From IMG/VR virus record IMGVR_UViG_3300019776_000324, positions 1-64,000 of that record: a stretch of DNA of 64,000 bases. The stretch is one strand, 5' to 3'. Shown in pieces: positions 3,621-64,000 of this stretch. The translations under genes were made by a program, and so were the position numbers. The notes under the pieces are model-generated. The model was not told where the DNA came from. It searched no databases and worked only from the letters and a program-made list of their open reading frames with translations. Numbering within the stretch: position 1 is the stretch's first letter; each line of letters starts with the position of its first letter. This stretch comes from a virus.

Positions 3621-3624
3621 AATA

Positions 3625-3692: not shown

Positions 3693-3722
3693 AGTTGTAT
3701 AGTAAGTAAAAAGGAGCACAAA

Positions 3723-4094: not shown

Positions 4095-4145
4095 GTAGTT
4101 TAGTAGTTAATTTTAATCGTAGTTTAATTTTTTAAGGACACAGCC

Positions 4146-21773: not shown

Positions 21774-22124
21774 ATGTTCAAGGCCATAAACGAATTGCAT
21801 CCGAGAAATCGTTCTGCTGAAGCAGACAAACTGTTCAAAGCACCAGAGTGGCGACTTGTTGACGATAAAGCTGTTAAGTTTTCGGATGTAATGGTTCATT
21901 CGTTCAACATGGGCGATGTAGAAGATCCAGATCTATATGCTGCACAACCCATTATGGAATGGCAGAACAGCGAAGCAGGACAATGGGTTATAGAACATGC
22001 TGTGGAGAAACCCTTCTGGCATCGTGTGTTGAGTCCTTACACTTATGGATGGACATATTATATTGTAGCTCGACTTGCTGAGCAAGATCAAACATACTGG
22101 ACACTTAAATGGCAAAAATCTTAG
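21774..22124 (+). CDS. distant member of the small-protein family (tail EQDQTYWTLKWQKS), probably leaderless
   Basis: C-terminus resembles the EQDAxMFKLKWA tails of the array. ATG 6 nt after TATAAT. Confidence 0.5.
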   Translation: MFKAINELHPRNRSAEADKLFKAPEWRLVDDKAVKFSDVMVHSFNMGDVEDPDLYAAQPIMEWQNSEAGQWVIEHAVEKPFWHRVLSPYTYGWTYYIVARLAEQDQTYWTLKWQKS

Positions 22125-45681: not shown

Positions 45682-46959
45682 TTAATTTGTAGTAACGATT
45701 GCTTCTACTGTACCTTCGGTTGCATCTAATTTATCGCGTAATGCACGACCAATAACATTAAAAGCTGTAGCTTCGCCAGGTTGTGCTGCTCTTGCTAACC
45801 CATTACCTGCGCTTACTAATCGATCACCTTTGTAGATGATTCCAACGGATCTAACCGGTACTCGTCCAGTCATTGCAACTGGTGGATGTGTAGCGTCTGT
45901 ACCAGCTTGGCTATTCATTAAGTAAGCAGCTCTTGTACTTATCACACCAAAAACTTTTTCACTTAATTCGCTAGTAACTTGAGTGATTTCAGCTGAACCG
46001 CCGAGCTCTACCACAGTACCAGGAACCATTTCTACATCTGCTTCAAAGCGTTCTGCAACGTCAGCGTAGTTTGCGTTGATTTGGTTACCACTGATAGTGC
46101 CGTTAGCACCGTAAATAGTCATTGCTGTAGTTGGTGTACCACCAATGTTTACACTGAATGAAAGATTACCGTTGCTAGTTTGATTTGATACTGATACATT
46201 TGTGTTAGATACCTGAACTCTGAAATCTGAGTTTAAGCCAACTGCTAAACCTGTATTGTTAAGAACACTCACAGTTCCTGTAGTTTGTGTATTTGCATCA
46301 CTGCGCATAAACTGAGTGCTAGACAAACTATTTAACTGTTGAGCGTTTGTTGCTGTGCCTTGGAACAATGGAACCTGTGAACCAACTAATGTTGACAATG
46401 TGATACCAGGGCGAACTGTTGTGAATCCACTTAGTGGAGGACTTGGGGTAAATGCAGCATCTTTACTGATAATACCAACAATACTGTTGTTTACATATAA
46501 TTCTACAACAACGTGATTGGTAGTGCCGTCTGACAATGTTGCTACGATTGCACCTGTTGTGCCTGTACCTGCGGTAAACTGTGGTCCAATTAATAACCAT
46601 GCACTACCAGTCCAAACATTTAACTGAGCATTTGTAGTGTCGTACCATAAGTCACCTGTACTGTTGCTTGTCGGAGCAGTTGAGCTAGCAGTAGCGGCAC
46701 TAATAGTTTTGAAAAGTGTACCGTTGTAAACTTTTAAAAGATTATTACCAGAATCCCACCAAAGCTGACCTGTTAATGGTGCTCCAGGAGGTGTTGTATT
46801 TGAACCGTTTTCTAGTAAATGAATAAAGTTGGTATCTAAAAAGTCGCCGTAACCAGCGTAGTTTTTACCAATCAAGGTCATTGAACTTGATGTGTTGATG
46901 GTACCGTCTGCTATTGTAGCAAAGACTGTACCGTCAGTTAAATTAATTGTATATGCCAT
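45682..46959 (-). CDS. tail fibre protein (425 aa)
   Basis: Repeats of the fibre motif GQLWWDSGNNLLKVYNGTLF / GDLWYDTTNAQLNVWTGSAW. Confidence 0.55.
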   Translation of the reverse strand: MAYTINLTDGTVFATIADGTINTSSSMTLIGKNYAGYGDFLDTNFIHLLENGSNTTPPGAPLTGQLWWDSGNNLLKVYNGTLFKTISAATASSTAPTSNSTGDLWYDTTNAQLNVWTGSAWLLIGPQFTAGTGTTGAIVATLSDGTTNHVVVELYVNNSIVGIISKDAAFTPSPPLSGFTTVRPGITLSTLVGSQVPLFQGTATNAQQLNSLSSTQFMRSDANTQTTGTVSVLNNTGLAVGLNSDFRVQVSNTNVSVSNQTSNGNLSFSVNIGGTPTTAMTIYGANGTISGNQINANYADVAERFEADVEMVPGTVVELGGSAEITQVTSELSEKVFGVISTRAAYLMNSQAGTDATHPPVAMTGRVPVRSVGIIYKGDRLVSAGNGLARAAQPGEATAFNVIGRALRDKLDATEGTVEAIVTTN

Positions 46960-47006: not shown

Positions 47007-47615
47007 TTATGCTGTACTCAAGTTAGTTAAAGTTTGAATACGCAAAGTATAATCAATTTGAATTTGGCGATTTAAGCTCTTTTGTACTGGGTGGAAAATT
47101 ACATGAGTAATTAGCAATAAATTAGTAGCACTTCCGTTCCAGCACTGTAAGCCCAATTCGTCAAATACGAATTCACCGTTAAAATTGGTACTATTATCAA
47201 ATGCTTGTTGTCCAGCAGGTTCGCCGTAATCTAACAAGCAAGTAGTTACAATATCAGTATAAACATTACCTGATGTATGTAAAACTGTGAGATAGTTATT
47301 TGCTGGGTCAACATCGGCTGCTGAATTGTTATCAACTACCTTGGAATATGTTTCGTTATACAAACTGGCATTTTGTCCAGTTGTGTTTGGCGGCAAATAA
47401 GTGATAACACCGGTTGGATCAACTGCGCTGCCGCCGTTGCCGAATGCCATTTTATAGATAAATCCTGTATTTTTATCAGCTAGAGTATTAGCCATGCAAA
47501 TACTAATGTTCTCGTAGTGAATTGCATTCTTTTTATCTACAAATACTTCACCCGATGCTGGGTCATAAACTTTTAAAAAGCCTTGAATGCTAGTTAAGCC
47601 TGGGGTTAAAATCAT
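47007..47615 (-). CDS. tail-associated protein (202 aa)
   Basis: In the structural module. N-terminal GFLKVYDPASGEVFVDKK motif is duplicated in the upstream small ORF. Confidence 0.5.
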   Translation of the reverse strand: MILTPGLTSIQGFLKVYDPASGEVFVDKKNAIHYENISICMANTLADKNTGFIYKMAFGNGGSAVDPTGVITYLPPNTTGQNASLYNETYSKVVDNNSAADVDPANNYLTVLHTSGNVYTDIVTTCLLDYGEPAGQQAFDNSTNFNGEFVFDELGLQCWNGSATNLLLITHVIFHPVQKSLNRQIQIDYTLRIQTLTNLSTA

Positions 47616-47755
47616 GCTCGTTTCTCCACGAATACCTTTTTAGTGTTTGGGTCAAAAATCTTTACAAAACCTTCAACAGAAACCGATCCTGTTTCGTTAG
47701 GGCGCTTTGGTGCAGGAGTTGGAGCTGGCTTTGGTGTAATATTTTCAGTCATGAT
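47612..47755 (-). CDS. 47-aa ORF duplicating the N-terminal motif of the next gene, absent from the ORF track
   Basis: Translates to MTENITPKPAPTPAPKRPNETGSVSVEGFVKIFDPNTKKVFVEKRA. ATGA overlap with the start of the 47007..47615 gene. EGFVKIFDPNTKKVFVEKRA vs QGFLKVYDPASGEVFVDKKNA. Confidence 0.4.
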   Translation of the reverse strand: MMTENITPKPAPTPAPKRPNETGSVSVEGFVKIFDPNTKKVFVEKRA

Positions 47756-47768: not shown

Positions 47769-50700
47769 TTATAGACCCCGTAAAAACCTTGCGGCCTTAG
47801 TTTCGGTTTCTTGTAGCGGAACACCGTTACTTGCGGTGCCTGCACCTTGCTCGTACCATGTTACACCTCTGCGAACCAACATTGTAACTTCTGCTCCAGC
47901 AGGCGGTGCATCAGTAAATGTAATTTCTGCTGGATTTTCGCCTGTAACTGTGTAGCCAGTAGTTACTCTGGTTCCGCCAACATATACTTCTAAACTTTCG
48001 TCACGGATTGAACTATCTTCCAACAACAAATTGATATCAACTGCGGTAAACACTGTAGTTGATCCATCAGCTATTGCGCTGTTAGTTACAATATAGTTTT
48101 GATATTGTTCTGGTAACAAATTGCCGCGGCCTAGGTTATAAACTATTGCATCACTATCGTGCGGTGCAGCGGCTGTACCGGCAGTTCCTCTTAGCAAGCC
48201 ACTTACAGTACCAGTTTGTTCATCCCAATAACGATACATGATACGCTCAGCATCAATTGTTAACACTCCCCAAATATTAGCAGCAAAATTTGGTTGTGTC
48301 AATGCTAGAATATTACCAACATAGATAACATCATCATCTTGAGCAACTGGTTGAGTAGTTACTGTTGTTGTTTGTGGAGTCATTCTATAAGTAGCCTGTA
48401 CTCCGCGCATGTCCTGGAATATTCTAAACTCCATAGATCCTGGAACTACACTTTGAGTAAAGCTGGTAATTGCCACAACTGTCTGTGCTGGGATCGTAGG
48501 GCCTAGGATAACAACATTTGATCCGTCAACTGTAAATCCAATGCCATTAAAGATCCATTCTCCGTTGACTGTAACCAGAAGTCTGTCTGGATTGTCGATG
48601 ATTGTACCAGTATCAAATACATTGGATTGTATTTGTGAACCAACACTGTAATCATACGATCCAGTAGTGTTGTTAACTGATGCGCTGTCAAAATCAACAC
48701 TATCGTATCCTTCTGATATTGTTATTCCAGAAGTAGTTGGGCCTACAAACACTTGTGTAAGTATGCCTTGTTCACTGGTGTCATTCCAAGTCACAAATTC
48801 AAGAAGGTCACCAACTTGCGGACTTAATCCTGCTTCTGGAAGGAAAGTTAATTCGTTGCCAGATATATTATACTGTGCTCCAGTTGAAACAGAAACTATC
48901 AATACTGTTCCTGGTGCTGGTGGAAATGCCATTGTAATAGTACGATTAGAAGAACCGTCCCATGGGCTAACTACATAAACAACATTTTGTTCTTGTAGTA
49001 CATTGTTGAAATATACTTCTACATCTGAGTCAGCAATCAATCCTTCGCTATATCCGCCGCGACTTGGTAAATCAAAAGTCTCAGTAGATCCATCACCAAT
49101 ATATCGTACGCTTTCGTATGGACGAGCTCTTACACCGTTACGCAATACCATTATGTTAACTGGGTTTGTACCTTGTAAACTATTAGTTAATGTGTAAGTT
49201 AATTGTGATGAGTCAGTAACTGTAGTAGTCTGGAATACTGGTAAACTCCAACTGTAAGTTGTGCCGTTGTAACCATATCCAAACGCAGCAAGATTGATAC
49301 GATCTGTAATGCCGTAAGTATCAGTGAATGTTACTAGAGTATTGTTTGTTCCAGCAATCTGCGCATAGGTATAATCAACTCCATTGACTAATTGTGTTTC
49401 GCCATTATAAATTAGGAATTCATATATGAGAGCCGCACCTGAAATTTCTGTCCAATAAGTTGTATTAGTTGGTAGTTGTCCAGAAAAATCATTGTCAATT
49501 GATTGATAGAACAGATTGTTATAAGAAACTACATCACCGTAGAAATATGTTGTTGAACTATTAAAAGCAACCGGAGTTGTAAACGGTACAACGACTGAGT
49601 CAAGTGATGCTTCGTTATAGGTCTCAAGATACAGTTGATTTCCACCGCCTACACCTGTAACATACGCAATTATAGTGTCGCCAGCTCTTGCTGTAGTTGG
49701 ATCAACAGTTAATTCATACTCAGCCCAATTGTACGACAACGGCTCAATTGCTAATTCAAGAGTAGCATTAAACAATATTACAACCATTGGATTTGCTAGT
49801 ACATTAGCAAAACTTATTGTAGGGTTAGCAGGATCGTACTCATAGCGACGACTAGCTATTGGGAATCCGTGTCCAAGGCCAAGCCAGTCAGCACCAGGAG
49901 TTGTGTAAACTCTAAAGTCTAAGGTATCAAATTCTGCACCTGGGATTAATTCTTCTGGTGCATGACTACTATATGTGTCAACATAGGCGCCGCCGTCAAC
50001 ATTAATGTCAGTAGGTCTTGTACCTAAATAGGTATCCAAGTACGAGCTTGAATATATTGCATCTAAAATTTCAGGTGAGTATGTTGGTGCACCTTCTGCT
50101 CCATATGCAATGTTATCAAACGGGTTGATGTCAAAATTACCAACATCAAAACCAGTATTTTGACTGAATGTAGGAGCAGTTACTTGTACACCTGGATAAT
50201 CAATACCATCTATCAACAGTGGAAGGCTCAAGCCAGGCATGTTGATACCAGGAACATAGTATCCCATTGTGCGGTCAACACCGCTTAGGTCACCAGCTTC
50301 GATTAATGTCCAATTGCTAGGAACAAACACAGAACTTGATCCAGATTGATCAGCTTCCCAAACTGCGTTAGACCAGCGTACTCTTGCGCCCTGGATGTAG
50401 GTTACATTGGCTTGCCATTCAGCAATACTGGTTGAATATTGATAACGGTCGTATTTGATTGTAGTCTTAATAGATCGTACAAGGCCGTTGCCCATTTGTG
50501 ATACAGCTATGGCTCCAGATCCGTTACCGCCAGTGAATGTAATAATTGCAGTAGTACTATATCCGTAACCTGGATCTACTATATTAACGCCACTAACTTG
50601 TCCAGAACCGTTGATGATTGCTGTAATAGTTGCTGGAGTAATGCAATCACCAGTTACTACTACATCAGGAGCAATAGTATATCCAGATCCGCCATTGATA

Positions 50701-53700
50701 ACTGTAACGCCTTCAATTTCTAACAAGTAATTGTTGTACCATTGTGCCCATGGATTTTCTAACCATATTTGTGCGTTAGGCGCAGCATCACTATTAGTTG
50801 ATTCAACTAAACTACCTGACATGGTATAAGGAGTTAACACTGGGCTTGTAAACTGAGGAATAGGTAATGCAGTATTCCAGTAAGCCGGAACATCAAAGTC
50901 TATTAGGTTACCTGGATACTCATCAGATCCATCATAGATTAAATTGAACGCAAGATTTTGTACATGGAATGGTTTAACTTCATTCAAGTAATCCAACACG
51001 AATGTTTGATTGTCTGGCTGGAATAACTGATACGGCAATAATCCACGAATCACATGATCTACATCAATGTAACTGGTCTTGATTAACCAGTACGGGTTAG
51101 TAAATTCAGTGTAAATGTACTGGAACATCAACATCAATAACTGATTGCGTTCAATTAATAAATCGCCAACAAATAATTCTTCGTTGATTGCTTTAATAAT
51201 TTGACGAGTCTCGATTACTGGTTCTTGATCAAAGTACTGTGCATCAAATACTTCACTGTCAAATCCGTATAGTCCGACTGAGTAATTCCATAGTTCTTCT
51301 TTAAATGCAATAGTACCATCTTCAAGGCCAACACGATCCCAACCTAGGTCTGTACGCAGGTAAATTTCATATTTTCCTTGGCCGTTGGCAGTAACTTTAG
51401 CACTACCACCAACTGGCACAGTTGCCAGGCTCAAAGTTTGTAGATTTGAAACATTTTGAACTGTTGCCAACGGCTGTACAGAACTATTGTATCCAGGAAG
51501 ATACCAATTGATATAATTCCAATACAGTGCTGTATCGTAATTTTGTACACGAACCAAACTTAACTCTTTTGATCCTACAGTTGTACCTGCAACAACTTCA
51601 TAAATTGTCCACAGACCGTTTTGTGTACTGTCTGACAATACCAAATACAAATATCCATAAGGAACAAGTGCAAGATCCTGGTACGCCAACACTTCAAGGT
51701 TTGGAACTTCATAGTTCCATGCACCTGAATTGGCAGCAGGAGTTGGCTCTGAACTGTTTAATAAGTTAAAGCTACGAGTTTCGCTAATTGGAAATTGTGC
51801 CAATATTGAGTTTGCACGACCTAGATAATTCTGTAAAGCAGTAAATCGGTCAACAAACATACTTTGGCGTGGGCGGAATTCTACACCAAATTGAAGTCCT
51901 GGACTCAATAATGGATCTGGAACTGCGTTGCCTACTGTGTCAACACCGCATAAGCTGTCAATTAACTTACGATATAAATTGGCATTTAAAAATGCATTTG
52001 CTCGCCCGTCTGCTATGAATTGATATTCAGTGTGAATGTCTGCGTTGCCACCAAGTGCTTGACGATCGTACTCAACATGCAATATTGTATCACTTGCTGA
52101 CAATAAACTTGAAGCATTGTAAACTGCTACAGTGTTTGCGTTGATACCAGCAATGTACGGAAGTCCGCTGCTGATTGGATTTAAAATATAACTGGCAATA
52201 GCGTTTGTGCTGAGTGTTTTACCATAAGCGGTCGCTACAGTTGATAATCCTCTTACCCAGAAATAGTAGCTAGTAACTAATATTCCAGTGTCTGTAATTG
52301 ATGACTTAACTGTGTAACTGGTAGAACTAAGCGGAGTACCGTCACCAGTGTAGTTAGCAGGAGGAACTGAACTTTCAACCCACTGATAAATGTCAATGGT
52401 ACTGCCTGGAAATACTTGACTCCATCTGCGGCTAGCATAGATAATATTGTCTTGATTAGGATCAATAAATCTAACACTATTTGTATCCCACCAAATTTGA
52501 CCTACATGAGTTTCACCCCAGCTGGTTCCAATGTTATGAATAGTTCCAGAATTGTAATTAGCAGGATCAACTGCGCCAATGTAGTCAATGTTTCTACGAG
52601 CCACACCTAGGATCTTACCTTGTAGTGGATCAATAAAGTCAAAATATGTTTGTGCTTGGTTAGTTGTAGCTAACTTGTTATAAGAATAAACAGAATTCAA
52701 TAGAGAAACATCAACAGTCGGTTGTTGTGCATGTATCACTGTCCAGACCGGAGCATCTGTTGGGTTATCCAACACTGCTACTTGTCCATAGTTAGCTGAA
52801 CTGTCGCCAAGGTCGCTTCCCGGAGCACCAACTAATAGACGCTGACTACGATAATTTACTGCAAGACCAAACTGGTCGCCTGTGTTCAAATCAGATGAAT
52901 ATACTTGCTGACCAAAAACAAAGTTACCTGGATCAGTAATTGATGAAGTTGCGCTAGGCAAGTAATCAAATGTGTATGCTACACCAGAATTTACAATAGT
53001 GTTAAAGAATGTAGTGCTACGGTCATCAAAGTATGTTTCGCCACCATCAAATGTAGTTGGCTCATATACATCACCGTTTGGTGCGCCTACTACTAAATTA
53101 ACTGCATTGGTATTCACACTAACAGCTGAACCAAACTGTGCATAATCTGTTGGGTTAGGACTGGTAATAGTCTGAGTGTAAGGATAAGTTACAAAACCAA
53201 TGTCATAAAATGCAGAACCAATTACGCCTGGTAACACTGTTAATTTATTAAAGGTTATTGCTGCATCTGTATTGATAACATTAATTGTTATTTTTCCAGA
53301 TACTACTTTAATTGTTGCGCCATATGACGGTGCCAACACAAATGCAATCTGTTGTGTGGTATTGTTGTAGGTATAGTTAACTCCAACTGTTTGTAATGTG
53401 TCATTTACATACACTACAGTATTGTAAGAGCTAGCAGAAGAGTACATGTTACCAATTTCAAATATTTTTGTTGAGCCATCGCCTGTTAAGTAAACATCGG
53501 CGCTGCTTGTAGAAGTAACATTTGGAATGCCGGAAGAGTTGATTACAGAAACCAATCCAGCGATTGTGTTGTTTGGTGAATCTGGTATTGTAACTTCAGT
53601 ATTATTGATGCGAATAGTATCGCCACCTGTTAGCACTGGGTTTGCAATAGTTGATGTTGTTACGCCGTACACACGAGATTGATTGACATTTCGTTGAGCG

Positions 53701-56700
53701 GAGCCAGCTTGTACTCGCACAGAACCATCGAGCGGAGCACCTGTATATACGCTACAGTTGTTGTAGCAAATATCAATAGAATGACCAAATGCTGATTCAT
53801 CAATTGGATTGTTAGGCTCAACTTTTTCTACTAACTGGAATTGATTTGTTTCAATTTCAATTATGTCGCCAATGGTTAATGTAAGCTCGCTAGATAAAAT
53901 AATATCACTGCCGCTTACTGTAAATTGACCGTTGATGTATTGAGCATTATTAGTTAAGTATTGGTTGTTTAACAATACTGCCACTGGGTCTGCAAATGAA
54001 CCAGGAATTTCGTAGGTGTATTGTGTTGCATTAGATACAATATAACGAACCGCACTTCGATCAATAGCGTACACAGCACCAGAGTTAATTGACTGATTGT
54101 TAGAGTCCAGTACTACCTCGTTTGGTGCGCCTATTAGAATCTGTCTTCCTAAGCGATCTGTTGTAATGCTAGATCCAAAATTAGCGGCAGAGTCTACTCC
54201 ATCTACTTCAATTGAATCTACATACTTCCAGTAAGTTCCTGTTACTACTTGAATTATAGCACTCACTGACGGCACTGTTATGAAAGTAAGAGTTGTTCCA
54301 CTGAATGTATAATCAATGTATGGTCTTTGTAGCACTCCATCAACTTCAACTGTGAAGGAATCATAACTTGTGGCTGTGTATAAAGAAAGTGCAAGGTTAT
54401 ACGATGGACCTGCAGTGGCATCTAAAGTAGCAACTTGACGACGAGTTATAATTAATTCTTGTCCAGGTGCAGGAACATATAAAAATTGAACCAATGTAGC
54501 ATTGATCAAGTAATCTACACCATACTGTGCTTCAAAGTTACCAATGGATACAGTTAACTGATCGTGGTTGGTAGAATTGATTTCAATATCGGTGTTGTAA
54601 ATGTAGGTAGCTGTGATTCCGTCAGTTACATATTTTACAACTTGTACCGGAATATCTACACGACCGTATGCATACACTCGATTTGCACCTGGTGCGCCGA
54701 TGTACATCCATCGTTCGTCGTCACTTATTTGTACTGCCGATCCAAACCCAATTGCGCTAAAGTCTTGATCTGGTGCAACTAATAATTGTGTCTGTACATA
54801 GTTTGCTGTGCCAGGAACAAGATAAAGAGTAGTTGCATAACCAGCACCAGAGTTACTAGTGTTAGCACCTGCGACTGACCAAACGCGATTACCAAAATCA
54901 ACACTGCAACCATAACCACTTGCGTCAGTTGCTGTTAAAATTAATTCTAAATTTTCAACATAATGATTGGTTGAATCTACACGATATGTATAAACTGCAC
55001 CACGACCAGAATCATCATTTGGACTGCCAACTAACAATGCGAAGTGATCTGCGCTTTGTGAAAGGCTACTACCATACAATGAATTAGGCTGAACTGCTGA
55101 TGCACTCAATAATTCAATTTGACTAAACGGATTTTGTTTTTGTATTACTTCCCAATGTCCTGATCCATCATTGTCTACCCATGCTGTTGCTCCTGGAACC
55201 AATTGTGTAGTGTATGGCAAATTAATAACATCGCTTGCTTGGCTAACACGCATGGTTTGTAAATAGAATACAATGCCGGTTCCGGTTACAGAAGTTTGGT
55301 TTGTATTAACGAATGCATATTCAATTGTAACAGAATTTATCGATGGAATACTTAGTACTCGATACACACCGTCAATTGAGCTGTCAAAGAATCGAACAAT
55401 AATTAAATCGCCAACACTAAGATTAACCACAGATGAGAATTGTGCAATACTTGTACCGTTAAGATTATCAGTTACTTGTACTAAACGCCCAGGAACTTGT
55501 TGACATTGATATATGTTCCAGTTGTAACTGTTATCTTGTGCTACCCATATTGTAGTTCCATTGCCAATTGTATCAAGTTTAGCAGAAATTGAGCTTGGAT
55601 CATTTAAGTTAAACACAGTGATGTCAGCATCGTTGATGTTAACATATCCGGCAGTCGGCAACGCAGTGTCAAGATTGCGAGTGTAAGTCGTTGGCAATAT
55701 ATCTGTTGTTGGGATCTTATAGCTTTCTGCCCACAAGTTGTTTAGATACACTGGTTGGTTTGCTAGACTTGTTTCGCCTGGGTTGATAATTTGTATTGTG
55801 CTTGGATTGCCAGTTAGTGCAGCTTCGTTTAAGTCAACTTCAAACCAACTGCGATTAGCATTTGCACCGTATGTGCCAACTAATATACCCCAGTTTTCGT
55901 AGATGTTGTACTGTCCTGTTTCCTTGTTGAAATTAACATTGGTAAACAAGTCTGTGGCCTTCAAGGTACCCTTGGTCTTGATAAACTCTTGATACAGATT
56001 AACCTGGCTAGTGTCGCTAAGGTCAAGATCAACCATGTATTGGCGCGGACGGAATCCAATCAATCCATAGGCTAATAAATCATTATCGTTGTTAAGATTT
56101 GCAGTTTGTGTGTCATAACTGTTGGCCAACTGATCAGCTTTAGTTGCTAAGTTTTGCAATAGGCCTTGTTGTATTAAATTATAATTGCTCTTATACCAGT
56201 CAGTATATTCAAACTTCTCTTTAGGTTGAACAATTGTTGCTGCTTGCCAATAGCTGTTTTTGTAAATAACAATTTCACCCTTGGTGTACTTGGTGTTTGG
56301 CTTCCATGCTACAACATTGTTTTGATTTAATATAAATCCTTGCGCATCAAGTGTACCATCCCAGTCAGTTGATGTTGATGCTACCATTCTTAAACGACTT
56401 TGGCGTTCAGCGGTTACAGTATTATAAACTAAATCGTTAAAAATTGTACGATTGTCTAATACAATCATGTCTTCGTAATCAGTAAATTTTAACTGTAAGA
56501 AGCTAATGGTCTGATTGCGGCCAGGAGTAACACCCACTGAGAATGAGTCTCCTTCGCGTTGTATTACTAAGTTGCGAGATTCAATTACTTGACGGTTTTG
56601 ATCAAGCAACATGTTTTCTGGTGAGTAACTTATAATGTTATCAACAACTGCGCCAGGTCTTAATGCGTTGATCTGGGTAGCAGATGGATTTAAGTTGATA

Positions 56701-59700
56701 ATGGTTCCAGCACCCCAGCCTTGATTTGAGAAGTATAAAAACTCTTGCGCCATTTGCAACCAGTTAAGAGTATAACCGTTTTCTTTTACTGTAAACTCTA
56801 AACCTTGACTAGACAGATACGCACCATAACTCAACAAGAAGTCAACGACACTGGTTTGATTGCTAAATGTGTAACCATAAGGAACATTTACAATACTGTC
56901 GCTGTATTGACTTGGCACTGTCACTGATGTATTTCCAGCAGACACTACTTGAGAGATACCGTTTATTTTACTTGACAGGATTGGGAAATACGGAACTACA
57001 CTATTATAACCGTACACTGCATATCCATCGGATGTGACTTCAACAATTACAGCACTGTATGAAATTTCATTGAATGGTTGATTCTTGTACAATAATAAAT
57101 TATAACTCTCGGGTGGAATCAACAAGCTACTATTTTGACTGCTTGGATTAGATTTTTCAAGATATAAATTTAAATTTTGTTCTGGAATAAATGATGCTGC
57201 ACGATAGCAAAGTCTAACATCAAGATTAGACAAATCAGTAGTTAATGCATCGGTGCTGTTAATACCTAGCTGACGATTATAATCAACGATCCAGTTAATA
57301 TAGCTTGCCTTGCTTAGGCCATTACCATATACTTGAATACTTTGTGGTTGAATTCTATAACGACCATTATACAAATATTGATCAAATTCTGCGTTGTAAC
57401 GATATAAGTCACGGTCAGCAAACAAGCTAAAGAATTCTGCAGGGCGTGTAAGGATTAACAAACGCATTACTGCAAATGGGTAGCTTGAACTTGCCCACCA
57501 AGACGCTTCAGTAGGACCACCATCGCCAACTTGCCAGCTCTTAACAAATCCAGTTGGATCGTAATTTCCAACTACGCTGTCTAATGGTGCCAATAATTCG
57601 CCTTGCTCACCAACTGGAATAACTTGTGTCAATCCTGGACGAACATATTTAGGATTAATGTAATAACCTACTGGATCTGCTACTAAACCTGCTTCTAGGT
57701 CGCCCCAGAGAACCAAGTTGTCACTAGTATATGGTGCTGGACCATAACGATTTTCCCACCAGTCTGGTTGCTCGCTAAAGCCTAACATTTCCCACGGAGA
57801 TATGTTAGGAGCAAGAGTATCATAGAAGTAACGATAGATGCCGCGCCATGCTCCTAGCAGACTAGCATCGTTTAGTTTATTACCAGCTTGACTATAGTTG
57901 TAGGTGAACTCATTTCCTGGAATATAATTTTGAGTGTTGTAATCAACTTTGTTATATCCAACCCAGGTTAAAAATTCTTCGCCAAGAATTTGATTAATTT
58001 CAGATGAAGTATAATCTGTTGTGCGGAAGAAACCTGGCAATACATCCTCAATTACCAACGGAGGAGGGTTACCATCATTTTTAAGATTATTAAAAATTCG
58101 TGTTTCAAATTCTAACAACACTTGGTCGCGAATATCGCCAAACGCTACTGTGATACTGCCGTCGTGGCCTTGAATTACTGTAGTTGGATCAACATAGTCT
58201 GGGTCAACAAAAATCTCTGGACGATACTTAGGATATAATCCAAGTTTAGTTGGTGTGTTTGGAACAAAATTACCAGCTGTGTTTGTGTACTCGTTAATGG
58301 TAACAACATCGCCAACTGCCAAAGGAATAGTGATAGTTAATGTAGGTCCTTCGGTGGACACTACATAATCATAATTGCGGGTTAATAAAACATTATTAAC
58401 ATATACCAACAACCCTTGATAACTTGATGTTGTGTAACTGTAAGTTTGAGTTAAGTTAAACACCTGTGTGGTTATAGGATTAACTGTTGTCACTGATGAA
58501 GTGAATGTTGGGCCAGTTGGTAACATATCACTCCAGTAGAATGGAGTCAAGCTAGTGTCACCTAAATTTATCTGCGCTATTGCAGCATCTAATAGTTCAG
58601 CCACAGTCATTGTTTGGTATTCTGCCAAACTAAATTTAGTAACTGTTTGCAATAATATTGATTTAAACTTAATATACTCGCGGCTGTTATATTCTAATGC
58701 AGCAAAAATATTGTAGTTTGGATCGCGCATAAAATAACCAGTTAAGGTTAGCGGCGAACTTTGCTGTAGGATCTGTAAACCGTAAGGAATAATATTGCCA
58801 AGGTCTCTGGTATTGTTTGCACCAATTACCGGACCACTTAGATCAATAAGATTTTCTGCGATTGTACTGTAGTGATTGCGTATTGTACCTAAAGTAAACT
58901 GTGTACTGTTGCCATTCAATGGATTGTTTGACAAGTTCATCGGAACTTGGTAGAATCCAACTTTACTAACTTGGTCACTTAACACTAGAACTTCGACTAA
59001 ATCACCATTGGTATATGTTGACAACAAATTAATAGTTGTGGTGTTGGTACCAATGGTTACAGTATACTGATTAGATTCTATAAATGTATCATTGATAAAA
59101 ATTTGTATTGACGGAACTACTTCGTTAGGATTTACTGCTACATCTAATAGCAGTGGAGATCCATCATAGGTAAATTGAAATTGTTGGCGTACAAGACTAG
59201 GAGTAGCAGCAGTCTGCCATCCAATTTCTCTTGTATAAGTTATGCGATCGCTGTATTGTCTTACAAAACCTGTACTGATGTCAACTGTTTTTCCAACAGA
59301 GTCAATGGTGTAATTAAAAGAATCTGCGTAGAGATTATTGTCAAAAACAATATCTCCAAGGTTAGTTAGGCTTAGATAAGTTAGTGGGAATCCTAAGATT
59401 AAATCTGGATCTCCATCACCTATAGCATAGCTGAACAATGGACTACCAGTAAATGTACTACTAGGATAAATTGCTTTATTGCCAAAACTTATACCATTGG
59501 AATCAAATACATCAAACAAAGGAGGTTGGTTAACACTATTTTTTTGTTGTGCTTCTAACCATTCAACACCGTCAAAGTAATAAGTTAACATTGCTTCGGT
59601 GTTGCCGTTTAAAATTAACACGCTTTGATCAAACAATACTGTTGCATCAGCGGCAGGAATCAGCGCAATAATTGGTTCATCGATCAAGGGCTCTACAGTG

Positions 59701-61925
59701 TCAGGAGTAATGAATTGCACTGTATAAATTGTTCTACGAACTTCTGGATCGGTATCTGCAGCAAAAATAACTCGTGAACCGTTGACGAATTGATAGCCGT
59801 CTACTGTATATCCAGGCTGTCCATTGACATTACTTAATGCGTCTGTTTGATTAAAATCAATGATGTTAACTGCTGGCTTACCTTGAGTGCCAAAATTAAA
59901 TAATCTTGTTCCAGCACGATATTCTAAAATAGGTCTAGCAGCACGGAAATTATTATCCAACACTGGAACAGTATTGTTGTAGGCCGCCGAGGAATTGATT
60001 ACATCAATATGGAACCAACGATTGGTTCTTGTCCATGGATTTAAATCTGGACTAGCACGATTGATTGTTAGATAATCTGGGATCGTTGCCTGGTCAGCAC
60101 TTGCTTCAAATATGCTAGTTGACAATAACTGAATAGATGTTCCTACTCCCTCAACATAGTAAGTGTTATTTTGATAACTTGCAGGCGCAACGGATCCACG
60201 GAATACAACTTTCATTCCATTAGTGAAAACCACTCCATTGGGACTGGTGTAGTTTTGTTGACCGAGTATACTAGAAACATCAATAGTACTAGCAGCAGCT
60301 TGATCAATAATTCTAAACGCACCAAAAATATTAGGGTCTGTGCCGTCTTGATAATACAGTACATTTTTAGTAGCAGTTAGTAATGGAATCTGCTCAAAGA
60401 ATCCATCTGAATTTTTATACCAACTGGTACTAGAATATTGTGTACCAAATAAAATATTAAATTTGTTTAATTCAGCAACCGGCATCACACTAACTAACGA
60501 AATGTATAATTCTCCGTCAGGTGCTGGAACATACTGTATCTGCCAAACACTATATTGTATAGCAGGATCAGTAATAAAGGTAGTTTGATCAAATAGTTGT
60601 GTATCAAATGATCCAATATCGGTATTGAAGGTATCATTTCTTGGCAATGGATCAAAGAATGTAGTTTGTTGCCAACCACCAGTGTCAGGATCTGAGTTAT
60701 TGTTAACAAAAACAATAGTGCGATTATTTAAGTCGCGAGTTCCATCGATACCAGTAGGGTTTGTTTCAAAGAATGCACTAACAGTTTGATTATTAACTTG
60801 ATCAAACTGTAAAGTGGTAGTAATTAAATCAACACTGCCAATGCTTGGCATGTCATAATAAAAATTCTGGGCTGTTGCTAGTGGAACATTAAATGTAACT
60901 GTTCCAAGGTCTTCGCCGTTGTTAACAACACCTAATACATCACGACTGCTGATGTTTGGTGTAGCTGGAATTCGACCATTAACACCTGGATCGGTCTGAA
61001 TCCAAAATCCAGGACCTGTGCCAGATTCAGCATCAACCACAATGAACTGTCCACTAAAATTAAGATCAGTATCATTAGAATAATACAATACATCTGGACT
61101 ATCTTGCGGTACTGTGAAAGTTATTAGTCCAGTACTTGCGCCGTTATTAGTAACACCGTTGCTATAGATATTTGTTGTACCAAGGCTTATTTGAGTCTTG
61201 ATATAAAAAGCTCTTGCTACTTTCTGTGTGAGATCAAACACATAGGTATTTCCACGAACCAATGTTAGTGTTGGATTTGGTGCATAATCAATAGCCCAGC
61301 TGGTTGGATTATCAGTTACACGAAAGTTTTCAGTCTCGGACTGATTTTGTGCTACTTGAAAAGTATAAGTGCCGCCACGAACTAGTGTGATTTCAGGATC
61401 GTTGCCATTGTAGCCAGAAAAAGTATAGGCACCGTTGGCTCGAGTAACTACAAAATTATCAGTTAGTGGATAACCGCCACTGAATACATCAACTTCGTCG
61501 GGTCCTTGTGGTAACCAATAATATTGAGCATAGTTTACAAACTTGTCAAAGTCTACAAACGGATCCCATGTGTAATAGTCGCTTGTGTACAAGCTGTCCG
61601 AGTTAGAAACATTAGCGCCTTGCAATTCTAGTGCATCGTTAATTCCAGGATAGGTAATAGCATCAATTACACGACGAGAATTGTCTGGGTCTAATTGAAC
61701 TACGCCTGGCTCTAATTGATAATCTCTGCGAGCGTTGGTTGGTTCGACTACATAACCATCATTGGCATTAACACCAGGTCCAACACGACGACCAACAAAT
61801 CCTTGTGTCTTTTTAAATGACGGATTTTGAACAAGCTGATCTAATGTTGCATTTAAAAATTGACGATTAACTGGTGTTTGAAATATCTCTGGCAGTAAAT
61901 TAACTGTGCGAATTTGATTAGCCAT
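47769..61925 (-). CDS. giant virion structural protein (4,718 aa), putative tail fibre/adhesin or baseplate-associated protein
   Basis: Uninterrupted 14,157-nt ORF. Thr/Ser/Asn/Gly/Tyr/Val-rich beta-type composition throughout. Start codon overlaps the stop of the upstream structural gene (TAATG). Confidence 0.6.
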   Translation of the reverse strand: MANQIRTVNLLPEIFQTPVNRQFLNATLDQLVQNPSFKKTQGFVGRRVGPGVNANDGYVVEPTNARRDYQLEPGVVQLDPDNSRRVIDAITYPGINDALELQGANVSNSDSLYTSDYYTWDPFVDFDKFVNYAQYYWLPQGPDEVDVFSGGYPLTDNFVVTRANGAYTFSGYNGNDPEITLVRGGTYTFQVAQNQSETENFRVTDNPTSWAIDYAPNPTLTLVRGNTYVFDLTQKVARAFYIKTQISLGTTNIYSNGVTNNGASTGLITFTVPQDSPDVLYYSNDTDLNFSGQFIVVDAESGTGPGFWIQTDPGVNGRIPATPNISSRDVLGVVNNGEDLGTVTFNVPLATAQNFYYDMPSIGSVDLITTTLQFDQVNNQTVSAFFETNPTGIDGTRDLNNRTIVFVNNNSDPDTGGWQQTTFFDPLPRNDTFNTDIGSFDTQLFDQTTFITDPAIQYSVWQIQYVPAPDGELYISLVSVMPVAELNKFNILFGTQYSSTSWYKNSDGFFEQIPLLTATKNVLYYQDGTDPNIFGAFRIIDQAAASTIDVSSILGQQNYTSPNGVVFTNGMKVVFRGSVAPASYQNNTYYVEGVGTSIQLLSTSIFEASADQATIPDYLTINRASPDLNPWTRTNRWFHIDVINSSAAYNNTVPVLDNNFRAARPILEYRAGTRLFNFGTQGKPAVNIIDFNQTDALSNVNGQPGYTVDGYQFVNGSRVIFAADTDPEVRRTIYTVQFITPDTVEPLIDEPIIALIPAADATVLFDQSVLILNGNTEAMLTYYFDGVEWLEAQQKNSVNQPPLFDVFDSNGISFGNKAIYPSSTFTGSPLFSYAIGDGDPDLILGFPLTYLSLTNLGDIVFDNNLYADSFNYTIDSVGKTVDISTGFVRQYSDRITYTREIGWQTAATPSLVRQQFQFTYDGSPLLLDVAVNPNEVVPSIQIFINDTFIESNQYTVTIGTNTTTINLLSTYTNGDLVEVLVLSDQVSKVGFYQVPMNLSNNPLNGNSTQFTLGTIRNHYSTIAENLIDLSGPVIGANNTRDLGNIIPYGLQILQQSSPLTLTGYFMRDPNYNIFAALEYNSREYIKFKSILLQTVTKFSLAEYQTMTVAELLDAAIAQINLGDTSLTPFYWSDMLPTGPTFTSSVTTVNPITTQVFNLTQTYSYTTSSYQGLLVYVNNVLLTRNYDYVVSTEGPTLTITIPLAVGDVVTINEYTNTAGNFVPNTPTKLGLYPKYRPEIFVDPDYVDPTTVIQGHDGSITVAFGDIRDQVLLEFETRIFNNLKNDGNPPPLVIEDVLPGFFRTTDYTSSEINQILGEEFLTWVGYNKVDYNTQNYIPGNEFTYNYSQAGNKLNDASLLGAWRGIYRYFYDTLAPNISPWEMLGFSEQPDWWENRYGPAPYTSDNLVLWGDLEAGLVADPVGYYINPKYVRPGLTQVIPVGEQGELLAPLDSVVGNYDPTGFVKSWQVGDGGPTEASWWASSSYPFAVMRLLILTRPAEFFSLFADRDLYRYNAEFDQYLYNGRYRIQPQSIQVYGNGLSKASYINWIVDYNRQLGINSTDALTTDLSNLDVRLCYRAASFIPEQNLNLYLEKSNPSSQNSSLLIPPESYNLLLYKNQPFNEISYSAVIVEVTSDGYAVYGYNSVVPYFPILSSKINGISQVVSAGNTSVTVPSQYSDSIVNVPYGYTFSNQTSVVDFLLSYGAYLSSQGLEFTVKENGYTLNWLQMAQEFLYFSNQGWGAGTIINLNPSATQINALRPGAVVDNIISYSPENMLLDQNRQVIESRNLVIQREGDSFSVGVTPGRNQTISFLQLKFTDYEDMIVLDNRTIFNDLVYNTVTAERQSRLRMVASTSTDWDGTLDAQGFILNQNNVVAWKPNTKYTKGEIVIYKNSYWQAATIVQPKEKFEYTDWYKSNYNLIQQGLLQNLATKADQLANSYDTQTANLNNDNDLLAYGLIGFRPRQYMVDLDLSDTSQVNLYQEFIKTKGTLKATDLFTNVNFNKETGQYNIYENWGILVGTYGANANRSWFEVDLNEAALTGNPSTIQIINPGETSLANQPVYLNNLWAESYKIPTTDILPTTYTRNLDTALPTAGYVNINDADITVFNLNDPSSISAKLDTIGNGTTIWVAQDNSYNWNIYQCQQVPGRLVQVTDNLNGTSIAQFSSVVNLSVGDLIIVRFFDSSIDGVYRVLSIPSINSVTIEYAFVNTNQTSVTGTGIVFYLQTMRVSQASDVINLPYTTQLVPGATAWVDNDGSGHWEVIQKQNPFSQIELLSASAVQPNSLYGSSLSQSADHFALLVGSPNDDSGRGAVYTYRVDSTNHYVENLELILTATDASGYGCSVDFGNRVWSVAGANTSNSGAGYATTLYLVPGTANYVQTQLLVAPDQDFSAIGFGSAVQISDDERWMYIGAPGANRVYAYGRVDIPVQVVKYVTDGITATYIYNTDIEINSTNHDQLTVSIGNFEAQYGVDYLINATLVQFLYVPAPGQELIITRRQVATLDATAGPSYNLALSLYTATSYDSFTVEVDGVLQRPYIDYTFSGTTLTFITVPSVSAIIQVVTGTYWKYVDSIEVDGVDSAANFGSSITTDRLGRQILIGAPNEVVLDSNNQSINSGAVYAIDRSAVRYIVSNATQYTYEIPGSFADPVAVLLNNQYLTNNAQYINGQFTVSGSDIILSSELTLTIGDIIEIETNQFQLVEKVEPNNPIDESAFGHSIDICYNNCSVYTGAPLDGSVRVQAGSAQRNVNQSRVYGVTTSTIANPVLTGGDTIRINNTEVTIPDSPNNTIAGLVSVINSSGIPNVTSTSSADVYLTGDGSTKIFEIGNMYSSASSYNTVVYVNDTLQTVGVNYTYNNTTQQIAFVLAPSYGATIKVVSGKITINVINTDAAITFNKLTVLPGVIGSAFYDIGFVTYPYTQTITSPNPTDYAQFGSAVSVNTNAVNLVVGAPNGDVYEPTTFDGGETYFDDRSTTFFNTIVNSGVAYTFDYLPSATSSITDPGNFVFGQQVYSSDLNTGDQFGLAVNYRSQRLLVGAPGSDLGDSSANYGQVAVLDNPTDAPVWTVIHAQQPTVDVSLLNSVYSYNKLATTNQAQTYFDFIDPLQGKILGVARRNIDYIGAVDPANYNSGTIHNIGTSWGETHVGQIWWDTNSVRFIDPNQDNIIYASRRWSQVFPGSTIDIYQWVESSVPPANYTGDGTPLSSTSYTVKSSITDTGILVTSYYFWVRGLSTVATAYGKTLSTNAIASYILNPISSGLPYIAGINANTVAVYNASSLLSASDTILHVEYDRQALGGNADIHTEYQFIADGRANAFLNANLYRKLIDSLCGVDTVGNAVPDPLLSPGLQFGVEFRPRQSMFVDRFTALQNYLGRANSILAQFPISETRSFNLLNSSEPTPAANSGAWNYEVPNLEVLAYQDLALVPYGYLYLVLSDSTQNGLWTIYEVVAGTTVGSKELSLVRVQNYDTALYWNYINWYLPGYNSSVQPLATVQNVSNLQTLSLATVPVGGSAKVTANGQGKYEIYLRTDLGWDRVGLEDGTIAFKEELWNYSVGLYGFDSEVFDAQYFDQEPVIETRQIIKAINEELFVGDLLIERNQLLMLMFQYIYTEFTNPYWLIKTSYIDVDHVIRGLLPYQLFQPDNQTFVLDYLNEVKPFHVQNLAFNLIYDGSDEYPGNLIDFDVPAYWNTALPIPQFTSPVLTPYTMSGSLVESTNSDAAPNAQIWLENPWAQWYNNYLLEIEGVTVINGGSGYTIAPDVVVTGDCITPATITAIINGSGQVSGVNIVDPGYGYSTTAIITFTGGNGSGAIAVSQMGNGLVRSIKTTIKYDRYQYSTSIAEWQANVTYIQGARVRWSNAVWEADQSGSSSVFVPSNWTLIEAGDLSGVDRTMGYYVPGINMPGLSLPLLIDGIDYPGVQVTAPTFSQNTGFDVGNFDINPFDNIAYGAEGAPTYSPEILDAIYSSSYLDTYLGTRPTDINVDGGAYVDTYSSHAPEELIPGAEFDTLDFRVYTTPGADWLGLGHGFPIASRRYEYDPANPTISFANVLANPMVVILFNATLELAIEPLSYNWAEYELTVDPTTARAGDTIIAYVTGVGGGNQLYLETYNEASLDSVVVPFTTPVAFNSSTTYFYGDVVSYNNLFYQSIDNDFSGQLPTNTTYWTEISGAALIYEFLIYNGETQLVNGVDYTYAQIAGTNNTLVTFTDTYGITDRINLAAFGYGYNGTTYSWSLPVFQTTTVTDSSQLTYTLTNSLQGTNPVNIMVLRNGVRARPYESVRYIGDGSTETFDLPSRGGYSEGLIADSDVEVYFNNVLQEQNVVYVVSPWDGSSNRTITMAFPPAPGTVLIVSVSTGAQYNISGNELTFLPEAGLSPQVGDLLEFVTWNDTSEQGILTQVFVGPTTSGITISEGYDSVDFDSASVNNTTGSYDYSVGSQIQSNVFDTGTIIDNPDRLLVTVNGEWIFNGIGFTVDGSNVVILGPTIPAQTVVAITSFTQSVVPGSMEFRIFQDMRGVQATYRMTPQTTTVTTQPVAQDDDVIYVGNILALTQPNFAANIWGVLTIDAERIMYRYWDEQTGTVSGLLRGTAGTAAAPHDSDAIVYNLGRGNLLPEQYQNYIVTNSAIADGSTTVFTAVDINLLLEDSSIRDESLEVYVGGTRVTTGYTVTGENPAEITFTDAPPAGAEVTMLVRRGVTWYEQGAGTASNGVPLQETETKAARFLRGL

Positions 61926-64000
61926 TAAATTACTCCACTGCCAGGTGCGGTTTGTAAGTTAGTACTAGTCAATGCAGAAATAACTTCAATGTCATTGACA
62001 GTAGCGCCGTTTACAAATATTTGATTTGGTGCAGATCTAATTTCATACAAATCACCAAAACTCTTTTGTGGGTTTAAAGGAACCAATACTACAGAACTCA
62101 CAACATCACCAATGTTTTGATGTATGTAAGCACTCAGTTCACTGAAATAGAATGTGTCGCCAAAGTTCCAAGAATCAAGATTAAAGAATGCATCCATATT
62201 AGCCACAACTAAATTCTTAATTGCACTAACGCTAGCAGTACTTTGAGTAGACTGAATAACTTTAATAGTTGCTCGTAATGCAGGCTGTGCCTTTTGTCCA
62301 AACAACGGTTGGAAGTCAACACTGTTAAGAATCATGTTATCTGAAATCATTTTATAATCTTGCAATCCTGCATAGGCTGTGTTTAGTTCGTCAATGGTTG
62401 GCATCTCAGGCTTCTGTACGGTACCGGTGGTATCTTTCAACCAATTTTGATAGGCTGTATAATAGTCGTTGGTTACTAGGTAAACATCAATGATGTTTGT
62501 TGATCCAGGATCAATACGACTAGTCAACGGACTGTTATGGCGATATTGGAAATACAAATTCTGGCGACCTGTTTGCGCAAGATATGAGCTGTCCACAGTT
62601 AGTGTAGGGTTGCCTAGATTATCAACACCAAGAACATAAAATACTTGATTTTGGCCAACTGAGTTTGTTTCAGCATAAGCATAAAACACTTGCCCTAATG
62701 AGTATTGTGTCTGAACTGCTTGTATCTCAGACAATGTTCCGTAGCTACTGTCAATGGTGCCTTTGGTTCCAGTGTTTGCAACTAGTAGATATCGTTGTAG
62801 GTTATCAAAATCCACAGTTGACTGGAAGTACACATATTTGTCAGTGGAGTTAACAGATGGTGCTACGATATCGTCAAAGAAATCTGGATTAACAGGAGTT
62901 AGTCCGTTGTTGGCTCTAGCAAAACTAACTTCAACTTGGAAGTCATCTACTAGTCCGTCACTTAAGATTGGCTGATCAATAATAGTTAAAACATTATCTG
63001 TACCCAATGTTACTGCACTGTCAGGGCGACTGTTAATTTTTAAAACATTTACATAGTCACGGATAACTGTGCCTGTTCTGCTATCGTAGATTGGATCGCT
63101 AGTGTAAAAGAAGAATCTTGTTTCTAACACGCTACCAAAATAATAGTTCAATGATCTTGAAACCACAGTATAACTGTATCCGTTGTAGGTGCACTGTATT
63201 AACCAACTAGCATCCTGATTGGTACCAGTAGTGCTTTGTGCATTTTCTAGACTGAATGTCGCATTCTCATCAAGATTGTTCGAAGTAATCACATACCATG
63301 TGCTAGTTAAATTATTGTAACCAATACCAAAATTTTGATTTAAGTAAATCTGATTTACAATAGTTTGTTGCACTGTAGTTGGAATATCTGTGGTAAACAC
63401 AGGAATAACTTGTACAGGAATAGCACCAGTTGGAACAAAAGTATTCAACACCACTGGACCAGATCCGTTAGGAAGATTACCAAGGCCGTCAGCTGTGCCT
63501 GCCAAATATACAGCAGTGGGGCTAGCCCAGATTACTGTTTTTTCGTCTGGTAATGTTGCTGTTCCTGCTACTAATTCGTTTTCTTTATTGAAGTAATACC
63601 CATCAGGCGGAACAAACTTTACTAAACTGCCTACTTGAATATACTTGGCGTTATTACTAGCATAGGTTCCAATCGAAACTGGCTCGCCAGCGGCATTCTG
63701 AAAGTATCCAGTTGTTTCATTTGTAATTACAGTGCTTTGATGCCATGTGTAATTTAATACTGCTAAATTTGGTCTTAAAAAATTAGCATAATAAAATTGT
63801 TGCATGCCAGACTTAAGAACCAATGGATCGATTTGATTTAGTACAGCATCACTGATGTCATTGGTTGTTAACCAGCTGAACTGAAATGCCGGCAAGGTAT
63901 CAACTTCATATAGTGCGCCATCGCTAGCAAAGATGTTTGTACTAGAATATTTGCCAGTACCGTCAACCAAGTCAAGGTATCGGCTAGTACCAATGCTTGC
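61925..64000 (-). CDS. large structural protein, N-terminally truncated by the window edge
   Basis: ORF open to the window end. Similar fibre-like composition. Stop overlaps the giant gene start. Confidence 0.5.
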   Translation of the reverse strand, partial: ASIGTSRYLDLVDGTGKYSSTNIFASDGALYEVDTLPAFQFSWLTTNDISDAVLNQIDPLVLKSGMQQFYYANFLRPNLAVLNYTWHQSTVITNETTGYFQNAAGEPVSIGTYASNNAKYIQVGSLVKFVPPDGYYFNKENELVAGTATLPDEKTVIWASPTAVYLAGTADGLGNLPNGSGPVVLNTFVPTGAIPVQVIPVFTTDIPTTVQQTIVNQIYLNQNFGIGYNNLTSTWYVITSNNLDENATFSLENAQSTTGTNQDASWLIQCTYNGYSYTVVSRSLNYYFGSVLETRFFFYTSDPIYDSRTGTVIRDYVNVLKINSRPDSAVTLGTDNVLTIIDQPILSDGLVDDFQVEVSFARANNGLTPVNPDFFDDIVAPSVNSTDKYVYFQSTVDFDNLQRYLLVANTGTKGTIDSSYGTLSEIQAVQTQYSLGQVFYAYAETNSVGQNQVFYVLGVDNLGNPTLTVDSSYLAQTGRQNLYFQYRHNSPLTSRIDPGSTNIIDVYLVTNDYYTAYQNWLKDTTGTVQKPEMPTIDELNTAYAGLQDYKMISDNMILNSVDFQPLFGQKAQPALRATIKVIQSTQSTASVSAIKNLVVANMDAFFNLDSWNFGDTFYFSELSAYIHQNIGDVVSSVVLVPLNPQKSFGDLYEIRSAPNQIFVNGATVNDIEVISALTSTNLQTAPGSGVI

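Follow-up and report, generated by a model that had tools for sequence, protein, structure and literature searches.

A 4,718-residue member of a jumbo-phage tail-baseplate protein family encoded directly behind a gp6-like wedge gene

A phage gene of more than 14 kb raises the question of whether so long a frame is real and, if it is, what kind of protein is built from it. Such a frame occupies positions 47769-61925 on the minus strand of the stretch analysed here (the window), i.e., the 64,000 nucleotides at positions 1 to 64,000 of the IMG/VR virus record IMGVR_UViG_3300019776_000324. It starts with ATG, comprises 4,718 codons and is a member of PHROG 10938. Here, we report that the giant gene is real and that it is a typical member of a jumbo-phage tail-baseplate family whose proteins are 3,000-7,000 residues long. 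In the explanation we favour, to which we assign a probability of about 0.6, its product is the giant baseplate protein of an uncultivated jumbo myovirus of ~345 kb from the RaK2/PA5oct/Atu_ph07 supergroup, occupying the gp7 slot as a wedge-anchored peripheral scaffold and adhesin.

The intact frame and its protein family

An earlier note, made from the sequence alone, had described an uninterrupted 14.2-kb open reading frame (ORF) of 4,718 amino acids (aa) that is translationally coupled to the structural gene upstream. The ORF listing and the translation bear this out, the sole stop being the terminal one. With the base composition of the region itself, a stop is expected with a probability of 0.065 per codon (about one per 15 codons), and 4,718 stop-free codons would occur by chance at ~10^-138; the other five frames over 47769-61925 contain 268-483 stops apiece. 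The coupling is visible in the sequence as a one-base overlap: the ATG of the giant ORF shares one base with the TAA of the upstream ORF (TAATG; junction GGAGTAATTTAATGGCT), and GGAG is located 9 nucleotides 5' of the start. The same one-base overlap between the wedge gene and the giant gene is found in Atu_ph07 and in a metagenomic relative (L001). Residue counts agree with the Thr/Ser/Asn/Gly/Tyr-rich composition noticed before (T 9.6, V 8.5, N 7.9, L 7.9, S 7.8, G 7.6, and Y 6.2 %), and Cys and His are scarce, with 7 and 18 residues in total, respectively. The description of the protein as beta-rich holds for the structural model of aa 120-1000 and does not hold for that of aa 985-2170, which is mixed alpha/beta.

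Relatives were collected by a scan with aa 1900-2500, which gave 29 distinct IMG/VR loci (39-74 % identity), the longest of their contigs having 316 kb. In every one of the 25 loci that are spared by contig ends, the homologous frame is open for 3,742-5,060 codons, indicating that the giant ORF is not an assembly artefact; a frameshift or sequencing error splitting the gene, a concern raised with the first description, was looked for in these relatives, and the long frame is intact in all of the uncut loci. Of these, 23 reach the same conserved C-terminal tail, while L005 and L011 do not. Frames broken within conserved sequence were found in L001 (10001-15789, 1,430 aa), L005 (4,152 aa), and L011 (3,742 aa); these breaks probably reflect frameshifts in assembly and not naturally shortened proteins. 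One candidate for a short complete homologue, P0011 (1,430 aa on an 86-kb contig), was rejected and treated as a frameshifted assembly because its alignment breaks in a conserved stretch and the contig end carries only short mixed-frame ORFs. Close relatives are collinear with the giant protein from end to end, aa 4000-4500 being the least conserved part.

These observations also bear on the proposal that the ORF is an assembly artefact, or that it encodes a tape-measure-like ruler or a virion protein that is internal or ejected. Such readings draw only on size and on other giant phage proteins, some of which are internal. Against them, the gene sits in a baseplate block, and the protein is beta-rich and globular, with neither long helices nor hydrophobic segments; the artefact version is already refuted by the frame being open in 25 independent contigs and by the chance estimate above. 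We regard this whole group of explanations as very improbable.

The family assignment was obtained by several searches. In hmmscan the giant protein matched PHROG 10938 ("virion structural protein") with E 8e-299, and BLASTP aligned it in collinear blocks with Atu_ph07 gp180 (4,449 aa), PA5oct gp355 (3,857 aa), and RaK2 gp465/ORF070 (3,326 aa), with E down to 1e-99 and 23-36 % identity to these homologues from cultured phages. A further giant virion structural protein of the same PHROG is 121Q gp582. When three segments were used as tblastn queries, they fell in one long gene in ~90 jumbo-phage records, including enterobacterial RaK2-like phages, PA5oct-like Pseudomonas phages, Atu_ph07, Phosso, and SCTP-2. 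Megablast of phage genomes gave no match, i.e., no near-identical phage genome. PA5oct gp355 is marked "ESI-MS/MS" in its RefSeq record and is thus a virion-detected orthologue. From its position beside gp129, gp130, and gp133, we take it to be the same protein as "gp128", which was described as one of the two largest PA5oct proteins and adjoins these baseplate genes (Lood et al., PMC7318152). The proposal that the window encodes a virion protein of the tail or baseplate is therefore sustained by homology to PA5oct gp355, Atu_ph07 gp180, and RaK2 gp465, as well as by the position of the gene after a gp6-like wedge gene.

The family is defined by an N-terminal domain, aa 1-147 (61485-61925; here and below, residues are followed by window coordinates, and all parts of the giant gene are on the minus strand), which is kept in 88 jumbo-phage records according to tblastn. 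With a profile built from the first 148 residues, a search of 1.84 billion representative proteins (50 % identity clusters) matched at least 1,386 clusters (E <= 1e-3), and 1,090 matches had E <= 1e-10; the family is very common. In nearly all of the best 150 of the 1,386 matches, the domain is found at residues 1-147. Family sizes were drawn from the IMG/VR loci and the representative library: most full-length members have 3,000-7,300 aa, and 105 of 138 new representatives have at least 3,000 aa (median 4,586 aa, longest 7,277 aa). With 4,718 aa the window protein is therefore of ordinary size within its family. The earlier claim that it is among the largest phage proteins is right in absolute terms; within the family, it is median-sized.

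The gene slot behind the gp6-like wedge gene

The gene that overlaps the giant gene by one base is gp6-like. Its C-terminal part lies at 61925-63970 on the minus strand and matches phrog_10646, named baseplate wedge subunit, with E 7e-114 over profile positions 926-1139 of 1142; because only the C-terminal end of the profile is matched, the gene must be cut by the window end. This ORF is 50-78 % identical in relatives, and its orthologues are annotated as baseplate wedge subunits. The annotated records of Atu_ph07, PA5oct, and RaK2 have a gp25-like gene, a gp6-like wedge subunit gene (1,150-1,320 aa), and then the giant gene; in L001 the order is likewise gp25-like (PF04965), gp6-like (1,158 aa), and giant gene.

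The arrangement is also maintained on the other side. The giant gene is followed by an ORF of ~45 aa and a gene of ~200 aa in L001, Atu_ph07, PA5oct, and RaK2, and the downstream part of this order is present in at least 20 IMG/VR loci. In the window, a 46-aa ORF (MTENITPKPAPTPAPKRPNETGSVSVEGFVKIFDPNTKKVFVEKRA; 47612-47752, minus strand) is located directly 3' of the giant gene and joins the next gene through an ATGA overlap. It is 50-89 % identical in relatives, and its slot is occupied by ORFs of 41-42 aa in PA5oct and Atu_ph07. We also observed that the C-terminal half of the 46-aa ORF resembles the N-terminus of the 202-aa protein encoded next, as in a partial duplication. The gene of this 202-aa protein (47007-47615, minus strand; phrog_11259) always follows the giant gene, and its product is therefore likely an obligate partner of the giant protein. 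It is the better conserved of the two, with 73-94 % identity in relatives, 51 % in Atu_ph07, and 38 % in PA5oct. Next comes a 425-aa fibre-like gene (45682-46959, minus strand), the N-terminus of which is common to PA5oct gp358 (annotated as T4 gp10-like) and Atu_ph07 gp176, and which has a weak match to a Peptidase_G2 intramolecular chaperone. The statement that the giant gene is followed by fibre genes stands to this extent, on weak evidence.

Homology, synteny, presence of an orthologue in the virion, coupling to the wedge gene, and domain content are established, and from them we infer the steps of a possible mechanism. Judging from the gene slot, the giant protein would stand in for gp7, TssG, or P2 gpI, i.e., the third wedge subunit. 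Its N-terminal 147 residues would fold upon binding and dock onto the gp6-like dimer with one copy per wedge, which would result in six copies per virion. The two core blocks (aa 540-2170 and 3061-3700) would then build the rigid periphery of an oversized baseplate, and the lineage-specific modules, i.e., cupredoxin-like sandwiches, carbohydrate-binding modules (CBM5/12), a probable seven-blade FG-GAP propeller, and ten sandwiches resembling the N-terminal domain of T7 gp17, would point outwards. Such outward modules may bind host surface glycans and/or dock downstream fibre proteins, e.g., the 425-aa product, and possibly pass the attachment signal to the wedge core, leading to sheath contraction.

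Several results weigh against a place for the giant protein in the wedge, and they concern likeness to the T4 components. Sequence searches of the PDB, including the solved T4 baseplate chains, with the whole protein and six family profiles did not find T4 gp7, and the N-terminal profile, when aligned with T4 gp7 by hhalign, reached a probability of 0.14. A tblastn search with T4 gp7 returned 1,480 records, and the clade of the window protein is absent from the 60 listed rows and from the top ten organism names. Neither gp7 nor TssG structures are among the fold-search matches listed for the modelled parts of the giant protein. With no similarity to T4 gp7 found, the proposed wedge attachment is therefore argued from gene order alone. 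In addition, phmmer of the L001 gp6-like orthologue against the PDB did not find T4 gp6, so that the label "gp6-like" derives from PHROG and RefSeq naming. Membership of the T4 gp7 family was thus considered and rejected at the level of sequence, and gp7 was not recovered in the fold-search lists; the resemblance is positional, gp7 lying directly after gp6 in T4 and the giant gene directly after a gp6-like gene here.

Modules of the giant protein and the radical-SAM locus

BLASTP against the Atu_ph07, PA5oct, and RaK2 homologues divides the giant protein into shared blocks (aa 4-148, 540-2170, and 3061-3690) and blocks that are not shared (aa 150-540, 2170-3060, and 3690-4718). In the AlphaFold model of aa 1-1000, pLDDT (the predicted local distance difference test score) is 41-61 for aa 1-120 modelled as a monomer, and the remainder is confident with a mean of 82.6; the low values fit a segment that folds only in a complex. 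After the N-terminal domain, aa ~150-540 (60306-61478) seem to form tandem cupredoxin-like beta-sandwiches, present only in the environmental clade and absent in Atu_ph07, PA5oct, and RaK2. Within the PDB, Foldseek matched the aa 1-1000 model best to rusticyanin and to multicopper oxidases of two and three domains (E ~1e-5), and the placement at aa ~150-540 comes from the strands and LVRGxTYxF motifs. Copper binding by these domains was rejected: aa 1-1500 are free of Cys, which rules out a type-1 copper site.

Core block 1 (aa 540-2170; 55416-60308) is collinear with Atu_ph07, PA5oct, and RaK2. Within it, an alpha/beta core at aa ~1064-1914 is modelled with confidence, and for this core the PDB fold search with Foldseek gave no relative beyond the CBM5/12 motif. 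Core block 2 (aa 3061-3700; 50826-52745) is common to the same three phages and has no Pfam or PDB match by sequence. Six segment profile hidden Markov models (HMMs) spanning the whole protein found no PDB chain at E <0.01 except at the CBM motif. The PDB match All3316 (7b5h) is confined to the CBM5/12-like motif, and the Pfam matches DUF2460, Rcc01698_C, bMG1, and CBM_X2, all under threshold, were disregarded.

The unmatched core leaves room for the proposal that aa ~1220-1870 are an uncharacterised enzyme, acting for example on envelope or polysaccharide, and that the protein is mainly a virion-borne enzyme carrier. This would agree with an invariant cluster of charged and aromatic residues in aa 1222-1413 (H1254, D1264, E1272, E1274, R1276, and W1378-E1379-M1380), with a fold that is confidently modelled and has no structural relative, and with the glycoside hydrolases that are the usual companions of CBM5/12 modules. 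The invariant residues are, however, equally explained as structural or interface residues, and profile searches of Pfam, NCBIfam, PHROG, and PDB identified no enzyme family, which makes the proposal improbable in our view. The depolymerase, enzymatic, and intramolecular-chaperone modules anticipated by the earlier note were likewise not found in the giant protein by Pfam, PHROG, NCBIfam, PDB profile, and fold searches, nor did Pfam, PHROG, and PDB searches find a beta-helix or catalytic domain or a trimerisation module in the giant ORF. What was found is a multi-modular build with carbohydrate-binding and adhesin-type modules, as that note had also expected: CBM5/12 and FG-GAP by Pfam, and the beta-sandwiches.

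The giant protein has three CBM5/12 modules, predicted to bind sugar. Module 1 is at aa 1873-1894 (56244-56309; Pfam CBM_5_12, 33.8 bits), a CBM5/12-like module 2 at aa 3837-3864 (50334-50417), and module 3 at aa 4120-4142 (49500-49568), the latter two from profile and Pfam matches; Pfam scores are 33.8 and 30.6 bits for a cut-off of 26.2. The first module is confirmed by its fold, with a Foldseek probability of 1.0 to chitin-binding domains.

An FG-GAP repeat region covers aa 2284-3060 (52746-55076), where Pfam FG-GAP_2 matches in four stretches (E 2e-16; 60.3 bits for a cut-off of 23), and all 21 relatives have this match as well. Seven blade motifs begin at aa ~2284, 2340, 2394, 2583, 2713, 2931, and 3019, six of them located by regular expression and the one at ~2340 read by eye; on these motifs, the region is a probable seven-blade propeller. 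Four beta-sandwich domains are inserted between the blades. They belong to a repeat of ~65 aa, for which an HMM was built from eight hand-picked seed copies and recovered two further copies, ten in total: aa 917-985 (58971-59177), aa 1146-1216 (58278-58490; also a fold match), aa 2432-2500 (54426-54632), aa 2509-2568 (54222-54401), aa 2628-2695 (53841-54044), aa 2812-2875 (53301-53492; non-seed), aa 4164-4213 (49287-49436; non-seed), aa 4275-4352 (48870-49103), aa 4431-4491 (48453-48635), and aa 4618-4690 (47856-48074). In its fold, the repeat is like the adaptor domains at the N-termini of fibres and tailspikes. Two relatives are matched by Pfam Phage_T7_tail, and in hhalign the repeat aligns in register with residues 13-67 of T7 gp17, a weak match (E 0.05).

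The C-terminal region, aa 3701-4718 (47772-50825), contains the part that is most variable among close relatives (aa 4000-4500) and is a candidate for the host-contact end. It closes with a tail at aa ~4690-4718 (47772-47858), ..GVTWY..G..ASNG.PLQ.T.T.AARFLRGL, which is nearly invariant in the clade. In a comparison that took in the C-termini of P0226-P0355, a tail of the PLQ..T..A.FL type (then K or R) closes most giant family members, including that of PA5oct, the middles of which are very different. This motif could be a docking or assembly signal.

With these modules in hand, a different role can be weighed, in which the protein is a free-standing giant tail fibre or adhesin, hung from the baseplate via an adaptor and serving host recognition only, with no part in the wedge. 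In favour of the fibre are the beads-on-a-string layout of beta-sandwiches, CBM5/12, and FG-GAP, the adaptor-like fold of the repeat, the peak of variability near the C-terminus, and the fibre-like genes that come next. Fibres, however, keep a short N-terminus only, whereas here ~2,200 core residues are conserved from the environmental clade to phages of Agrobacterium, Pseudomonas, and Klebsiella; coiled-coil, beta-helix, trimerisation, and intramolecular-chaperone modules were not detected, and the slot and the translational coupling to the gp6-like gene are invariant. A fibre is the less likely of the two, and we continue to prefer a wedge-anchored scaffold and adhesin.

On the same strand, 5-17 kb downstream of the giant gene, come radical-SAM paralogues and then a carbamoyltransferase (30265-31773, minus strand; Pfam E 1e-47). 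The former are five tandem genes (32883-40687, minus strand) with 19-32 % mutual identity, three of which have a SPASM Fe-S domain N-terminal to the radical-SAM core, an unusual order. The one nearest the giant gene (39275-40687) is 68-87 % identical in 80 IMG/VR contigs, and all seven checked contigs with both genes have it at a distance of 6-9 kb on the downstream side of the giant gene, including one where the giant protein is just 45 % identical; the linkage is therefore conserved. The radical-SAM gp171 of Atu_ph07 was rejected as an orthologue of the window genes (E 0.01). The window further contains a nucleotide-sugar epimerase and an aminotransferase (22109-24122, plus strand) and a weak GT2-like match (41321-42289, minus strand), which together with the carbamoyltransferase are the components of a presumed glycan locus. 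It had been suggested that an adjacent glycan locus may decorate the giant protein. The label "glycan locus" is uncertain because most of the locus is made up of SPASM/radical-SAM paralogues, and SPASM enzymes suggest peptide or protein chemistry no less than they do glycans.

A bolder version of the baseplate explanation can be formulated with this locus, in which a single polypeptide would replace the entire T4-type periphery from gp7 to gp11, with a core of ~850 residues of unmatched fold and an integrin-like FG-GAP propeller with nested sandwiches as the receptor sensor, and in which the SPASM/radical-SAM cluster may modify the giant protein or its 46-aa neighbour after translation. We consider this rather unlikely; if true, contractile-tail baseplates would have a new solution in both architecture and maturation.

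Three further features of the window are on the plus strand. ARAGORN calls a 92-nucleotide tRNA-Pro with anticodon AGG at 521-612, inside the ORF 132-1103, which may be a false call or intron-bearing, since both length and anticodon are unusual. A block of small plus-strand genes includes an ATPase-family ORF (4146-5231; phrog_1297, E 6e-97) and an HNH-endonuclease-like ORF (15584-16867; phrog_1314, E 1e-108).

Significance and comparison with known systems

Taken as a whole, the interpretation in the earlier note fares well on the virion or baseplate location and on the modular, adhesin-type build, and less well on enzyme and chaperone modules, which the searches did not find, and on exceptional size, which the family does not support. 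For this window, the outcome is mainly correct annotation rather than discovery. The giant protein is probably the largest single baseplate component of RaK2-like jumbo phages, a group that includes candidates for phage therapy (PA5oct and Klebsiella phages), and its family is so far known without a solved structure or tested function in any member; a search of the literature found no baseplate reconstruction for RaK2-like phages. In the module map that we present, the N-terminal anchor, the two core blocks, and the C-terminal tail are universal, and the remainder is lineage-specific and probably host-facing. This map can be used for fitting in cryo-electron microscopy and for work on receptor binding.

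Closest to the window protein are the giants of Atu_ph07, PA5oct, and RaK2, with which it has in common the N-terminal 147 aa, the core blocks aa 540-2170 and 3061-3700, the slot after the gp6-like wedge gene, and the ~45-aa and ~200-aa genes that come next; with PA5oct it also shares the PLQ/FL-type C-terminal tail. It differs from them in aa 150-540, aa 2170-3060, and most of the last 1,000 residues, which have no counterpart in cultured phages, and it comes from an uncultivated metagenomic clade whose host and habitat are unlike those of the cultured three.

The single modules have their own parallels. The sandwich repeat can be compared with the N-terminus of CBA120 TSP4 and with the N-terminal domain of T7 gp17, except that the giant protein has ten copies, some of them between propeller blades, and that, unlike in branched tailspike adaptors, the sandwich domain precedes no trimeric shaft or catalytic beta-helix. 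With the FG-GAP propellers of integrin-alpha, it shares seven blade-like motifs and FG-GAP_2 repeats that pass the Pfam threshold; unlike those propellers, the one proposed here is known from sequence motifs, stands in a phage-baseplate context, and has its blades interrupted by four sandwiches.

To our knowledge, every characterised contractile system has the gene of a third wedge subunit behind those of gp25 and gp6. In the order gp25, gp6, X, the giant protein agrees with T4 gp7, the baseplate wedge initiator, and with its minimal counterparts TssG, P2 gpI, and Mu gp48, and it would be expected to share their role as a wedge subunit with an exposed outer portion that bears the fibre or receptor-binding periphery. 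The giant protein is ~4.6 times longer than T4 gp7 (1,032 aa), to which likeness in sequence or fold was undetected. In other contractile systems, the gp7-like part is a hotspot of evolution and forms the exposed lateral surface to which fibres bind (PMC8894135).

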